Of a DNA stretch of 64,000 nt, positions 12,170-26,784 are shown piece by piece. This stretch comes from Acidobacteriota bacterium (GTDB taxonomy: Bacteria > Acidobacteriota > Vicinamibacteria > Fen-336), in NCBI GenBank assembly GCA_011526565.1, contig WYBL01000026.1, forward strand, positions 103,928 to 167,927, given 5' to 3'. Each line of letters opens with the position of its first letter. Positions within the stretch are counted from its first letter, which is position 1. Made by a program: the position numbers and the translations under genes. Under the pieces are notes generated by a model. The model worked only from the letters and a program-made list of their open reading frames with translations, was not told the origin of the DNA and made no database searches.

Positions 12170-12588
12170 TGGCGGACTGGGTCGACCTGCACGAGGACTG
12201 GCCGGACCTGCGCGGCACCTTCCTGCACGCGTGGCCCGAGGCGGAGGTCGGCGCGCTGCGGGCGCGGCTGGAAGCGCGGGGCTTCCGCACGCTCTACGTC
12301 GACACCCGCGAGGGGAGCTTCCTCGACGGCCTGGCGGCGGGCCTGGGACGCGCGCGCGGCCCCGGGCTCGACGCCGCCAACGACCTGCTGCTCGACTGGG
12401 CGGGGCTCGACCGCGCGCCGCGCGCGGTGGTGTGGAGCGGCGCCGACGCCCTGGCCGCCCGCGACGCCCAGGCCTGTCTCGACGCCCTCTGGCTGCTCGA
12501 GGCGCTGGTCCCCTCCGACTACGCCGAGCCGCAGTGCGAGGTGTTCGTCGCGGGCGCGGGGCCCGCCTACCTCCGCCGCAGCACGTAG
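12169..12588 (+). CDS. Barstar-like ribonuclease inhibitor (immunity protein), start-coupled to the RNase gene (TGATG)
   Basis: It lies immediately downstream of the barnase-like gene with a 1-nt stop/start overlap. It is acidic, with CLDALWLLEAL resembling the barstar DALWD segment. The size (139 aa) is larger than barstar. Confidence 0.55.
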   Translation: MADWVDLHEDWPDLRGTFLHAWPEAEVGALRARLEARGFRTLYVDTREGSFLDGLAAGLGRARGPGLDAANDLLLDWAGLDRAPRAVVWSGADALAARDAQACLDALWLLEALVPSDYAEPQCEVFVAGAGPAYLRRST

Positions 12589-13400
12589 AAGGGGCGGCGG
12601 CGACCGCTCGCCTCGGTCGGGGCGAAGTCGGCGGCGACGTAGCCGCGGCCGAGGTACGCCGAGAGTGCGACCCGCACCTTGCGCTGCCAGTCGGAGGCGA
12701 CCCGCGGCGCGGCGGAGCTGAGCACGTCCCAGTCGGGCGGGATCTCGAGCAGCAGCGACTCGGCCTCGAGTTCCGTGCTGGGCTCGGAGGAGACCGGCCA
12801 GCCCGCCTTCCACACGACCTCGTTGACCGGCTCGCCGTCCGGGGTCGCGACGCTGCGCGGCAGTTCGCCGGCCGCGGCGCGCTCGCGGACCCGCTCGGAG
12901 TCCAGGTCCCAGCGCACGACCAGGCGGTCGGTGGGCAGCCCGTGATGCAGCGACGAGGTCGTGATGCCGTACATGTCGGGCACGAACTCCGGCGCGACGG
13001 CGCCGAGCCGGCGCAGGTTGAGGTTGGCGTTGCGCGCCTGGAGCGGGTCGAAGGTCCAGGTCACGAAGGACAGGCCGCGGGCCAGCGCTTCGTCGCGCTG
13101 CGCCCACTTGAGACGCGCTCCGATGCCCTGCGCCTGGCGGTTGGGCAGCACCGCCAGCATGTCGGAGTGCAGGTGCGGCACGCCGCCCTTGATCGCGGGG
13201 AACGCGTAGCAGAAGCCCACCGCGCGCCCGTCTGCGCCCTCGGCGAGGTGCACGATCCCGCCCGCGTGCACGGTGGCGATCAACTGGATCGCCGAGGTGA
13301 TCTCGAGGTCGTGCAGGCCCCACACGGCGCGCTGCAACTCGACGCACGCGTCGTAGTCGGCCCGCGACCCCGCGGGCCGGATGCGGATCTCTTCGCTCAT
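12567..13400 (-). CDS. GNAT-family N-acetyltransferase with C-terminal extension
   Basis: ATG start at MSEEIRIRPA. The acetyl-CoA motif region is VHLAEGADGRAVGFCYAFP...RQAQGIGARLKWAQRDEALARGLSFVTWTFDPL. Confidence 0.7.
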   Translation of the reverse strand: MSEEIRIRPAGSRADYDACVELQRAVWGLHDLEITSAIQLIATVHAGGIVHLAEGADGRAVGFCYAFPAIKGGVPHLHSDMLAVLPNRQAQGIGARLKWAQRDEALARGLSFVTWTFDPLQARNANLNLRRLGAVAPEFVPDMYGITTSSLHHGLPTDRLVVRWDLDSERVRERAAAGELPRSVATPDGEPVNEVVWKAGWPVSSEPSTELEAESLLLEIPPDWDVLSSAAPRVASDWQRKVRVALSAYLGRGYVAADFAPTEASGRRRPFYVLRRR

Positions 13401-13426
13401 GGGCGCGGAGTCTACCAAGCCGCGCG

Positions 13427-24167: not shown

Positions 24168-25930
24168 GCGGCGTGCCCCGTGGCGGGGCCGTCGACGTGG
24201 CGGCGATGCCAGGCCTCGATCACGAACAGGGCCCAGAGCCGATAGCCGTGCAGGGCCCGCAGCCGCGCATGTTCGTCCCACAGCCGCTGCACGTAACGCT
24301 GGCGGAACAGGCCGCGCTGCCGGCACCGGGGCGAAAAGAGGAGGTCCGCCACCTGGTCGCGGAACGGTCCCGGCTGCCAGAGCCAGGCATCGATCGGGAG
24401 CGCGAACCCGCGCTTGCGGCGCGTGAGCACGGGCGGCGGCAACAGCGCCGCAAAAGCGCGCCGCAGCAGCTTCTTGCCTGAGTGCCGGTCCACGCGCCAG
24501 GCGACCGGAAGGCCGGTGGCGTGGTCGGCGAAGGGGCGGGACAACGCGGGCACGCGGATCTCCAGCCCGGCCAGCATCCCGGCCCGGTCGCACTTGTGCA
24601 GCAGGTCCGCGGGCAGATAGCGGCGCAGGTCGTCGCTGAGCCGACGCTCGCGGCGGCTGGCCAACCGCGCGTGTGGAGGCAGGGACGCCGCCGGCTGCCA
24701 CGCGCCGAGCCGGCGGCGGAAGGCGGCTGACGGCAGGCCGCCCAGCGGAGTTCCCGCGCCGGGCCACGCGGCCAGTGCGTCGGCGGCGAGATCGAGACGG
24801 CGGTGCCAGAAATTGCCGCCATGCAACTCGTCGAGGCCTTCACCTCCCAGCACGGCCTTGACGTGGCCGCGCGCGAAGCGGGCCAGCAGGTGGGTCGGCA
24901 CCACCGAGGCGTCCGCGAACGGCTCGTCGAGGTCCTCGAAGAGCGCGGGGAGCGCGCGGGCGGCGGTCGTGGCGTCGATCGAGATCTCGTGGTGGGTGGT
25001 GCGGAAGCGCTGCGCGACCAGCCGCGCGAACGGCCCCTCGTCGAATCCCGGCGCGGCGATGCGGGCGGAGAAGGTGGGCAATCCGGGGCAGTGGCGGCTG
25101 GCGAGGGCCACGACGGCGCTGGAGTCGAGCCCACCGCTGAGGAACACGCCGACGGGGCCGTCGGCGCGCAAGCAGCGTTCGACCGAGGCGTCCAGGCGCC
25201 GGACCAGCGTGCGCGCCGCGTCGGCGGGCCGCCCGGCCCGCGCGGGGGTTCGCGCGGGCGGAGGCTCGTGGTACCGGCGCAGGGTGCTCGCTCCGTCCGC
25301 CTCGACGACCAGGACGTGTGCGGCCGGGAGGCGGCGCACGTCTCGCCAGATCGACCGCGTGTCGTCGATCGCGAGGCGCGTCAGGCAGTCCGCCAGCGCC
25401 CGCGGATCGACGCGTCGATCGAAGCCGGGAGCCGCCGCCAGCGCCCCGGGCTCGGACGCGAAGCGCAGCCGCCGCGCGTCGCGGACGTAGTAGAGCGGCT
25501 TGATCCCGAACGGGTCGCGGGCCAGCACCAGCCGCCGGCGCCGCGCATCCCACAGCGCGAAGGCGAACATCCCGCCGATCCGCTCGACGAAGCGGAGGGG
25601 ATCGTCCTCGTAGAGGTGCAGGATCACCTCGCAATCGCTGCCCGTGCGCAACGAGTGGCCGCGCCCGGCGAGCCGCACCCCCTGCTCGCGGGCGTCGTCC
25701 ACGTGGCCGTTGCAGACGAGCCACAGGCTCGCGTCCTCGTTGCTCAGCGGCTGGGCTCCCCCCGCGGCATCGATCACGGCGAGACGCCGATGGCCGAGAC
25801 CCAGCGTCCCGTCGAAGTGGAAGCCCGCGCCGTCGGGGCCGCGGTGGGCCAGTCGACGCGTCATCTCGCGCACGGCCCGCCGATCGACCGGCGCCCCGTC
25901 GAACCGCCACTCGCCCGCGATCCCGCACAT
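24164..25930 (-). CDS. Asparagine synthetase (glutamine-hydrolysing) family protein with intact Cys1 glutaminase domain. It is a candidate sugar/peptide amidotransferase or lasso-cyclase-like enzyme.
   Basis: MCGIAGEW is an Ntn Cys1 start. The PP-loop is VGVFLSGGLDSSAVVAL. The AsnB C-terminal domain is present. ATG at 25930. Confidence 0.85.
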   Translation of the reverse strand: MCGIAGEWRFDGAPVDRRAVREMTRRLAHRGPDGAGFHFDGTLGLGHRRLAVIDAAGGAQPLSNEDASLWLVCNGHVDDAREQGVRLAGRGHSLRTGSDCEVILHLYEDDPLRFVERIGGMFAFALWDARRRRLVLARDPFGIKPLYYVRDARRLRFASEPGALAAAPGFDRRVDPRALADCLTRLAIDDTRSIWRDVRRLPAAHVLVVEADGASTLRRYHEPPPARTPARAGRPADAARTLVRRLDASVERCLRADGPVGVFLSGGLDSSAVVALASRHCPGLPTFSARIAAPGFDEGPFARLVAQRFRTTHHEISIDATTAARALPALFEDLDEPFADASVVPTHLLARFARGHVKAVLGGEGLDELHGGNFWHRRLDLAADALAAWPGAGTPLGGLPSAAFRRRLGAWQPAASLPPHARLASRRERRLSDDLRRYLPADLLHKCDRAGMLAGLEIRVPALSRPFADHATGLPVAWRVDRHSGKKLLRRAFAALLPPPVLTRRKRGFALPIDAWLWQPGPFRDQVADLLFSPRCRQRGLFRQRYVQRLWDEHARLRALHGYRLWALFVIEAWHRRHVDGPATGHAA

Positions 25931-25986
25931 CCGGCGCCAACGATATACGGATTGGCCGCGGGCGCCGCGGGCTAGGATCCCGGATC

Positions 25987-26784
25987 TTGATCCAGGCAGG
26001 ACGTGCAGCGGAGGACTCGACGCTGGTGCTCGGAGCCGCCGGTCGCGTCGGGCGCGTGCTCGCCGCGCGACGGGTCGGGGGCCCGCGGGCCGCCTTCGTC
26101 GACGTGGACGCCCTGGACGTGAAGGAGCCCGTCGCCCTGGCGCGGGCCGCGCGCTCCCACGAGCGCTGGGTTCACCTGGCGAGCGAACTGCGCACGGCCG
26201 CGGTCGATCCCGCTGCCGCCGACGCCGAGGCCTGGCGGTGGCGGCGGTCGCACGTCGAGATGGCGCGCCGCGTGCTCGCGGCTGCCGTGGCCGGCGGCGT
26301 GCGCCAGGTGGTGCTGGCCAGTTCGGTCCGGGCGGCGGACCAGGATGCCGCCGGTGCCGGCCCCGACAGGTTGACGCACGCCGGTATGAACCGCGCGATC
26401 GAGGAGGCGGGTCGCGAGGCGTCACGCTCCGGACCCGACGTCGCCTGCATTCGGCTCGGCAGCGTCTCGTGGCCCGACCGGCCCCGCAGCCCCGACGAGG
26501 CGCTGTGGCTCTCGCACGAGGACTGCGCGGCCGCGTTCGCGGCCGTGCTCGCCTCGCCCCCGGTCGGCGGCCGCTTCACGGCGTTCACGGCCGTCTCGGC
26601 GCTGGCGGGTACGCACCCGGACACGGCGAACCCCTTCGGCTGGCAACCACACACCAGGCGAGTGGGATGGCGCCGCCGGGCCCACGGGCGGGTCGTCGAC
26701 CTCAAGGGCCGGCTGCTCGACTCGCCGCTGGGACCGTTCCTCCGCGAGTGTCAGCGCTCCGGACGGCGCCTGGTGGGTTCCTGA
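25987..26784 (+). CDS. NAD(P)-binding Rossmann-fold protein (atypical SDR/NmrA/epimerase-like). TTG start inferred.
   Basis: TLVLGAAGRVGRVLAARR glycine-rich loop. It is divergent from the Asn-synthetase gene by 56 bp. Confidence 0.55.
   Translation: MIQAGRAAEDSTLVLGAAGRVGRVLAARRVGGPRAAFVDVDALDVKEPVALARAARSHERWVHLASELRTAAVDPAAADAEAWRWRRSHVEMARRVLAAAVAGGVRQVVLASSVRAADQDAAGAGPDRLTHAGMNRAIEEAGREASRSGPDVACIRLGSVSWPDRPRSPDEALWLSHEDCAAAFAAVLASPPVGGRFTAFTAVSALAGTHPDTANPFGWQPHTRRVGWRRRAHGRVVDLKGRLLDSPLGPFLRECQRSGRRLVGS

Follow-up and report, generated by a model that had tools for sequence, protein, structure and literature searches.

The system considered here is a compact cluster of 14 genes (g1 to g14) at positions 12567-26784 of a 64 kb stretch of DNA from an Acidobacteriota bacterium (64,000 nucleotides of contig WYBL01000026.1, the whole of which we refer to as the window), in which genes of the type that tailor peptides made by the ribosome and then modified post-translationally (RiPPs) lie among glycosyltransferase genes. 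Eight of the genes form one conserved unit across distant bacteria, glycan-type and peptide-type together, and one of these, g7, encodes a RiPP recognition element (RRE) that ends in a leader-like peptide of its own. This fused tail and a serine peptidase of family S51 encoded by g8 are the most distinctive features of the cluster. An earlier interpretation, made without database searches (the sequence-only reading), had missed the tail and left g8 (18097-18843) unnamed.

Raw lists of open reading frames (ORFs) are crowded with spurious frames at the ∼74% G+C of the window, and genes in 12567-26784 were called from a third-position GC frame plot together with ORF analysis and inspection of start sites. 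They fall into six strand blocks (three genes on the minus strand, one on the plus strand, three minus, three plus, three minus and one plus), with junctions that are either overlaps of 4-22 bp or gaps of 8-56 bp. The count is one fewer than the fifteen genes given previously; the gap range of 0-56 bp and the repeated flipping of strands described at the same time are borne out. Families were assigned by Pfam and NCBIfam searches of the 14 genes, and every family that had been named finds support there. The PqqD, HprK-like and NTP_transf_5 assignments hold up in these profile searches, the HprK-C-like protein scoring below the Pfam threshold with its motifs intact, and catalytic motifs are intact wherever they were checked. 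The G+C content at third codon positions is 0.89-0.94 in cluster genes, slightly below the 0.95-0.98 of flanking genes, and the cluster genes diverge faster among relatives than the flanks do (55-80% vs 76-96% identity to locus L013; related loci and proteins are denoted by L and P numbers).

Core genes and the lasso-peptide question

At the centre of the cluster, g7 (17663-18073, minus strand, 136 residues) is a core gene for a PqqD-family RRE (PF05402, 58 bits) whose start at 18073 is backed by an N-terminal extension conserved in P0079 and P0080. The solved structures closest to its recognition domain are those of the lasso B1 proteins TbiB1 (E 1.5e-9) and TfuB1. It has the PqqD-family domain of a lasso B1-type RRE, with lasso-specific NCBIfam models below cut-off (33 of 70 bits), as is TIGR04353 (20.9 bits, cut-off 35). 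The two core genes downstream of it on the same strand, g6 (16962-17666) and g5 (16234-16965), encode family 2 glycosyltransferases (GT2; Glycos_transf_2, 89 and 78 bits, respectively). The g6 counterpart in L017 is 47% identical, and g5 has orthologues in L003, L012, L013 and L017. The TTG start of g6 overlaps the stop codon of g7 in a conserved gaTTGa arrangement. At 17663-17668 the rare codon GAT encodes the terminal Asp of g7 in all relatives, and because GAT-TGA creates the TTG start of g6 the two genes are translationally coupled.

Three core genes on the plus strand follow. The product of g8 (18097-18843) is assigned to the S51 serine peptidases (PepE/cyanophycinase fold) from profile and Foldseek evidence. 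Its Pfam score for S51 (PF03575) is 21 bits, below the gathering score of 24, and its orthologues carry precomputed PF03575 annotations. Sequence and profile searches against chains of the Protein Data Bank (PDB) gave no matches, and the S51 link rests on hhalign to E. coli PepE (93% probability, E 2.6e-7), in which the catalytic Ser and His of PepE (Ser120, His157) are matched by S127 and H162 of g8, both of them invariant, and on Foldseek, where the top 13 PDB matches are all S51 proteins, either PepE or cyanophycinase (AlphaFold model with a mean predicted local distance difference test score, pLDDT, of 62). In distant relatives (L002, L004 and L005) the position of g8 is held by a lasso B2 protease, and our literature searches returned no description of an S51 peptidase in RiPP clusters. 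The next gene, g9 (18855-19799), encodes an HprK-C-like/ScmC-family P-loop kinase that scores 28 bits with Hpr_kinase_C (gathering score 33) and 47.5 bits with TIGR04352 (cut-off 200); its Walker A sequence GDTGSGKS and LHAAAV motif are intact, and its orthologues carry precomputed PF27840 (ScmC). Translationally coupled to g9 is g10 (19796-20884), a family 4 glycosyltransferase (GT4) gene (Glyco_trans_1_4, 79 bits), and the order S51-kinase-GT4 is retained in L017 and L019. The core gene g4 (15150-16250, plus strand) encodes a nucleotidyltransferase-fold enzyme of the NTP_transf_5 family and of PsmN/LppN type (PF14907, 118 bits), with the G-x13-DLDL catalytic motif, that is co-conserved in L012, L013, L015/16 and L017.

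The last of the core genes, g13 (24164-25930, minus strand, 588 residues), bears most directly on the earlier suggestion of a lasso/paeninodin-like cluster. Its product is a glutamine-dependent asparagine-synthetase-like (AS-like) amidotransferase in which Asn_synthase (278 bits) and GATase_7 (132 bits) are the only domains; there is no fused RRE, the RRE being the separate gene g7. The protein retains a full glutaminase domain with the nucleophile Cys2 in its N-terminal MCGIAG, as well as an SGGLDS PP-loop, and it passes the equivalog model for glutamine-hydrolysing AsnB (TIGR01536, 378 bits vs a cut-off of 267) while failing NF033535 (215 bits vs 525) and NF033561 (62 vs 300), the models of lasso cyclases, which form the macrolactam without using glutamine. 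Its best NCBIfam match is an XrtA/PEP-CTERM amidotransferase at 417 bits, below cut-off, and the orthologue in L017 is 40% identical. No Transglut_core3 B2 protease (PF13471/NF033537) was found among the 14 genes with Pfam or NCBIfam. Nor is there a precursor of lasso type, in which a leader precedes a core that begins with G/A/S/C and has Asp/Glu at position 7-9: a six-frame scan of the whole 64 kb for [YW]xxPx[LVIFA] near a stop codon yielded no credible free ORF, the sole credible in-frame match lying inside g7. Judged from these assignments, the cluster is not a lasso-peptide cluster, and the B1, C and D set that had been proposed for it falls away, with an AsnB-type enzyme in place of the cyclase and both B2 and a stand-alone precursor absent from the window.

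The tail of g7 and the wider PqqD families

In the g7 protein a variable linker rich in Pro and Ala joins the recognition domain to the tail YRAPRLEKRGNLKYLGQLD (17666-17722, minus strand), in which a leader-type YxxPxL motif is followed by 13 residues to the end of the protein. The final 11 residues are identical in 8 of 8 close orthologues, down to 51% identity, and the tail differs at three residues or fewer in more distant representatives, down to 34% identity; the linker is not conserved. Relative to the 66%-identical copy in L013, the last 20 codons of g7 have 7 synonymous changes and 1 non-synonymous change, as compared with 4 synonymous and 19 non-synonymous changes in the 25 codons before these, and selection therefore acts on the tail peptide.

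When 1.84 billion representatives (50% identity) were searched exhaustively with HMMER, the subfamily was found to reach down to 34% identity and to include a low-GC organism, the genomes concerned ranging from 41% to 74% GC. Every member ends in Y-x-x-P-x-[LIV]-x-x-[KR]-G-N-L-[KR]-[YF]-L-G-Q-[LF]-D, with 19 residues from the Tyr to the C-terminus in all cases. The searches turned up ∼12 such proteins, of which six come from 5.8 billion clusters at 90% identity and another five or six from the 50%-identity representatives, so that the subfamily is rare yet spread over very different genomes. When the back-translated tail was scanned across metagenomes, two further copies from the same lineage were obtained and no free-standing peptide. 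The YxxPxL motif is bound by lasso-type recognition elements (PMC13381572) and spans positions -17 to -12 of lasso leaders (PMC10368454). On this ruler g7 ends at +2, with Leu-Asp alone beyond the canonical cleavage position.

Many of the nearest PqqD relatives of g7 belong to a sister family of 140-160 residue proteins (P0094-P0237) with the tail [YF]xxPxLxx[YF][ST]DMxxLLxLDP[IP]H.V..GWP, the extended motif being present in at least 45 of the 150 best representatives. The g7 tail aligns with these tails and stops right after their common 'LD'. At L018:3139-5838 an HprK-like gene and then a GT2 gene come after a sister-family gene, and in P0103, P0146 and P0182 repeated units of PqqD plus motif are fused to an HprK-like kinase domain. 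In the literature searched we found neither group of tailed PqqD proteins described, nor any fusion of an RRE with a leader-like peptide; NCBIfam likewise lacks a model for either group or one that extends over the tail.

More distant HprK-like/ScmC proteins sit in peptide-maturation settings. L002 and L005 carry NTP_transf_5-PqqD-B2-kinase cassettes that lack a cyclase, and a further cyclase-less cassette in L004 mixes peptide- and glycan-type genes (PqqD, B2, two GT4, a hexapeptide acyltransferase, an epimerase and the HprK-like gene); other distant relatives are found in radical-SAM/SPASM neighbourhoods. Free short ORFs with the motif of the g7 tail accompany these cassettes, which speaks for the pathway proposed below. 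Directly upstream of the HprK-like gene in L004 is a 58-residue ORF containing PYERPRIVKG (L004:9813-9989, plus strand). A 24-residue ORF, MKRTYRKPVLRRLGLLRRLTRF(T/S)F, is conserved in L002 (∼20575-20649, minus strand) and L005 (∼17004-17078, minus strand); it contains YxxPxL, places a Thr at -2 and a three-residue core on the lasso ruler, and has a weak lasso-leader match (E 0.066). This 24-mer may be a tiny scaffold peptide of the cassette ∼10 kb away, a link that is tentative over such a distance. A profile search of genome contigs that matched the P-loop only gave two weak loci, in Sphingobium and Paracoccus, of which the Paracoccus locus was dropped, its match lying in a 144-residue P-loop ORF. 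Similarly, the match of a distant HprK-like relative to the FomB kinase (19 bits) covers the P-loop only and is not used as evidence.

Conservation of the gene set, accessory genes and surroundings

Six close metagenome loci keep the gene order at the same chromosomal site, with the two sugar-nucleotide genes present in some of these loci and missing from others. The distant L017 (41% GC, with a PqqD protein 34% identical to g7) has NTP_transf_5, the tailed PqqD protein, two GT2, AsnB with its glutaminase domain, GT4, the HprK-like protein and S51 together, the GT4 and HprK-like genes being frameshifted in what is a low-coverage assembly. No pump, SGNH protein or GNAT is found on the L017 contig, and sugar-nucleotide genes are likewise not with the core set. 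In a third lineage, L019, the genes for the tailed PqqD protein, S51, the kinase and the start of GT4 lie in a row. Because the same eight genes recur together in a genome as different as L017, the glycan- and peptide-type genes form a single unit. Chance does not account for the arrangement, whose order persists in the six close loci and whose core set recurs in two distant lineages. The PqqD, HprK-like and NTP_transf_5 genes thus do travel with the glycosyltransferases, as the sequence-only reading had wished to see established, and a hybrid peptide-glycan product is a sensible reading since the peptide-type genes keep this company in relatives. No priming phosphoglycosyltransferase, Wzx/Wzy, Wzm/Wzt, Wza/Wzc or ABC-2/synthase export component was found in the 14 cluster genes or the 17 flanking genes scanned.

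The remaining six genes (g1, the sugar-nucleotide genes g2 and g3, the SGNH gene, the pump gene and g14) were considered as core members and rejected, as they are missing from L017 or variable among close relatives. g1 (12567-13400, minus strand) encodes a GNAT-family acetyltransferase of 277 residues (Acetyltransf_1, 25 bits). Its conservation (88-96%) is that of a flank gene, cluster genes being 55-80% identical in L013; it has no homologue near the core set in L017, and is probably peripheral. g2 (13427-14392, minus strand) is an accessory gene for a nucleoside diphosphate (NDP)-sugar 4,6-dehydratase/epimerase of the short-chain dehydrogenase/reductase (SDR) type (GDP_Man_Dehyd 200 bits, Epimerase 190 bits); in NCBIfam it matches LegB-like and dTDP-glucose dehydratase models best, both below cut-off, and it is absent from the otherwise syntenic L013. 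The other accessory gene, g3 (14389-15111, minus strand), for a sugar-1-phosphate nucleotidyltransferase (NTP_transferase, 63 bits), is absent from both L012 and L013. Two genes are specific to the lineage. One, g11 (20863-22518, minus strand), encodes a membrane-anchored SGNH/AlgX-like acyl-hydrolase or O-acyltransferase (ALGX 41 bits, Lipase_GDSL_2 39 bits) that has a GDS block and, near its N-terminus, about four hydrophobic segments, no counterpart of which was found near the core set in L017. The other, g12 (22527-24167, minus strand), whose start overlaps the g13 stop by 4 nt, encodes an MsbA-like ATP-binding cassette (ABC) exporter with fused transmembrane and nucleotide-binding domains and no peptidase domain (ABC_tran 106 bits, ABC_membrane 24.5 bits); its best NCBIfam matches are of CydD/LssB/MsbA types, below cut-off. 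Finally, g14 (25987-26784, plus strand) encodes a peripheral Rossmann-like protein with a GAAGRVG (GxxGxxG) motif, weak SDR-type NCBIfam matches and no Pfam match, and has an orthologue in L012 and none in L017.

The flanks are unrelated to the cluster. On one side lie a CDGSH gene and, at 11723-12588 (plus strand), a barnase-like ribonuclease gene followed, with an ATGA-type overlap, by a barstar-like inhibitor gene, which in turn shares 22 bp with the end of the GNAT gene; all syntenic relatives conserve the barnase/barstar pair. Farther out on this side, at 8352-9160 (minus strand), is a TonB-dependent receptor gene without its beta-barrel, which matches residues 15-220 and 579-650 of the 650-residue L012 orthologue and is probably a pseudogene from which ∼1.07 kb has been deleted. 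The proximity of this receptor gene marks the host as Gram-negative. On the other side, at 26806-37104, MMPL/RND-like, BNR/Ycf48-like, DUF1329 and DUF1302 genes occur in a row, followed by multihaem cytochrome and MtrB/PioB-type porin genes, a set that suggests an extracellular electron-transfer module in this 74%-GC Gram-negative host.

Known systems, a proposed pathway and its rivals

Several characterized systems share parts with the cluster. In the lasso systems of paeninodin/pseudomycoidin type (PMC6993621; Bsf cluster, PMC10368454) one finds a B1-type RRE that binds YxxPxL, an HprK-like kinase, which in these systems is RRE-dependent, an NTP transferase and an ABC pump, as here. The differences are the absence here of a macrolactam cyclase, B2 protease and ring-forming core, and an Asn-synthetase homologue that is an amidotransferase. 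In pseudomycoidin, the C-terminal Ser is phosphorylated and the attachment of a hexose to it requires PsmN (PMC6993621), so that the link drawn in the sequence-only reading between a nucleotidyltransferase-fold enzyme and hexose was correct. Parts are also shared with the clusters for linear polyphosphorylated peptides (LPPs) in Bacillota (Popov et al., Nat Commun 2026, PMC13381572), which combine an RRE with a kinase of the HprK-like type, an NTP transferase, an MsbA-like pump and a non-B2 peptidase in glycosyltransferase-rich loci. They resemble the present locus in the lack of a cyclase, the non-B2 leader peptidase, the glycosyltransferase surroundings and a leader motif YxxPx(V/L). Compared by description, four of the five parts of the LPP core set are present here (RRE, HprK-like kinase, NTP transferase and MsbA-like pump), S51 standing in for the absent SpI-like peptidase. 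However, LPP precursors are free proteins of 35-200 residues with a phosphorylated Ser3, as opposed to an RRE-fused tail without Ser or Thr, and their motif, YxxPxVLxHQxIxFETxxS, has only YxxPxL in common with the g7 tail. Moreover, the LPP core lacks an AS-like amidotransferase, whereas g13 is core here, and the LPP hosts are Gram-positive, unlike the 74%-GC Gram-negative host of the present cluster.

In the late steps of fosfazinomycin biosynthesis (Cha et al., bioRxiv Sept 2026, PMC13622209) a 22-mer YxxP scaffold is modified at its C-terminal carboxylate by an AS-like enzyme whose glutaminase domain is functional; a nucleotidyltransferase paired with a discrete PqqD RRE then ligates a phosphoryl compound that kinases have activated, before a peptidase frees the small product. 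Shared with the present system are an Asn-synthetase-like enzyme with a glutaminase domain, a short YxxP peptide, a discrete PqqD RRE with a nucleotidyltransferase, and a peptidase. The components present here are the AS-like g13, with Cys2 and PP-loop, and the 19-residue YxxP tail with its invariant free C-terminus, on which an analogous reaction is predicted. The arrangement differs in that FzmA has a fused RRE, as do the AS-like enzymes of sequence similarity network cluster 58 of PMC13622209, to which g13 does not conform, and in that FzmZ is a free 22-mer, whereas in the present cluster RRE and AS-like enzyme are separate proteins and it is the RRE that carries the peptide. There are also no phosphonate or hydrazine genes; in their place are three glycosyltransferases and a dedicated S51 peptidase. 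The pairing of an HprK-like P-loop protein with a PqqD-family chaperone, as in g9 and g7, has been recognized before in Haft's HPr-rel-A (TIGR04352 kinase, TIGR04353 PqqD) and SynChlorMet (ScmC/ScmD) systems. These are the best or near-best NCBIfam matches of g9 and g7, yet far below curated cut-offs, and their models do not cover the g7 tail. A likeness of logic, not of homology, exists with mycofactocin, where the RRE MftB presents the invariant C-terminal dipeptide of a small peptide, the peptidase MftE releases it once modified and repeated glycosylation by the GT2 MftF follows. A weak match to MftF (54 bits) is seen for g5, and the cluster differs in having no radical SAM enzyme, a peptidase of another family and other chemistry.

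We propose, tentatively and with a confidence that stops somewhat short of even, that the locus encodes a cyclase-less RiPP-type tailoring pathway derived from lasso machinery, which would build an amidated, (phospho)glycosylated product on the C-terminal Leu-Asp of the tail for release by the S51 peptidase. The tail would dock in cis on its own recognition domain and present the free Leu-Asp, making g7 its own scaffold peptide. The AS-like g13 would then amidate the carboxylate of the terminal Asp, in the manner of FzmA and of PesC and TsrC, which also modify peptide C-termini (PMC13060819). The kinase g9 and nucleotidyltransferase g4 may install a phosphate-linked sugar or similar group, by analogy with PsmK/PsmN and FzmK/FzmU, and the three glycosyltransferases would extend it, for which g2 and g3 would provide the sugar nucleotides in this lineage. 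S51, a family known for Asp-containing dipeptide units, would release a small modified Leu-Asp unit, which in this lineage the ABC pump would export and the membrane SGNH protein may acylate.

A number of points weigh against such a pathway. The chemistry is drawn from family precedents, and the action of S51 on the g7 tail is a proposal. Ser and Thr, the sole residues that HprK-like RiPP kinases are known to phosphorylate, are both missing from the conserved tail, and LppK did not accept Thr or Tyr (PMC13381572). The best match of g13 is to an exopolysaccharide-associated amidotransferase, and a sugar acid might be amidated instead. An AlphaFold2 model of g7 (from a 7-sequence alignment; pLDDT 51, tail disordered) is uninformative on docking. 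In addition, the sister-family motif occurs inside longer tails or, in fusion proteins, separates PqqD repeats that lie upstream of a kinase domain, and an internal or repeated motif is more in keeping with a pseudo-leader that has a structural role in cis than with a substrate.

The chief rival takes up these last points: the tail would be a built-in pseudo-leader that fills the recognition groove or docks on the kinase, and the true substrate, a peptide or protein encoded elsewhere or else an acceptor that is not a peptide, would be decorated by the kinase, nucleotidyltransferase and glycosyltransferases. Besides the non-terminal sister-family motifs, the repeats that precede an HprK-like domain and an invariant tail devoid of Ser and Thr, it can draw on the free RRE FzmT, which is dispensable for ligation in fosfazinomycin biosynthesis. 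Engineered leader-enzyme fusions that activate RiPP enzymes also count in its favour. Groove occupancy, however, needs only YxxPxL, and this would not call for a stop fixed 19 residues past the Tyr or for near-invariance of the last 11 residues. The co-conservation of an Asp-type peptidase and of an AS-like enzyme, a modifier of C-terminal carboxylates in three RiPP precedents, likewise speaks against it, as does the lack of a separate precursor candidate in the 64 kb window, and on balance we regard a pseudo-leader as rather unlikely.

Two further explanations do without the tail as a scaffold. In one, the genes would be an ordinary surface-polysaccharide or glycolipid cluster in which a uronic acid would be the substrate of AsnB, and the glycan would be O-acetylated by the SGNH protein and flipped by the ABC pump, the PqqD, kinase and NTP_transf_5 genes being unrelated neighbours or a regulator. 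AsnB and GT4 do match XrtA/PEP-CTERM-system proteins best in NCBIfam, albeit below cut-off, and an AlgX-like SGNH protein, an MsbA/PglK-like pump and sugar-nucleotide genes are all present. Yet in L017 it is the glycosyltransferases and AsnB that stay with the tailed PqqD protein, kinase, S51 and NTP_transf_5, and the pump, SGNH and sugar-nucleotide genes that do not. The absence of priming, polymerization and export components from the cluster and the flanking genes scanned, and the translational coupling of g7 with g6 and of g9 with g10, which bridges the two supposed halves, also leave this explanation improbable. Least probable is a true kinase-type (paeninodin-like) lasso cluster with its precursor elsewhere and the glycosyltransferases as extra tailoring, previously the leading idea. 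The RRE is closest to lasso B1 proteins, paeninodin-type clusters typically have a kinase, an NTP transferase and an ABC pump, and glycosylated lasso peptides exist (PMC11912497). Against this stand the AsnB character of g13, with its glutaminase Cys, the missing B2 protease and the lack of a lasso-like precursor in the 64 kb. With the one leader-like sequence present, a 'core' of two residues would remain, which cannot make a ring of 7-9 residues.

Returning to the pathway built on the tail, its parts and general logic are known as of 2026. In the two studies of that year described above, lasso-type RREs, HprK-like kinases, NTP transferases and AS-like enzymes are re-used for linear phosphopeptides or for small-molecule assembly on a scaffold peptide. 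The locus adds a third layout, with an Asp-type S51 peptidase, three co-inherited glycosyltransferases and an RRE with its own leader-like peptide. We have not found the combination of S51, an RRE-borne leader, an unfused glutamine-dependent AS-like enzyme and three glycosyltransferases described; the view that this architecture is new therefore stands for the arrangement, and gives way in so far as cyclase-less relatives are reported in PMC13381572 and PMC13622209. If the tail is the scaffold, the locus would represent a case of RRE and substrate in one polypeptide, undescribed in the literature searched, and a route to a glycosylated dipeptide-like metabolite. That g7 is its own carrier in an eight-gene system making a glyco-dipeptide metabolite in unrelated bacteria, with the larger sister family working on the same principle, is a more doubtful extension. 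The tail itself marks a large unnamed PqqD family, the members of which would be missed by precursor-centred mining tools because there is no separate precursor gene to find.

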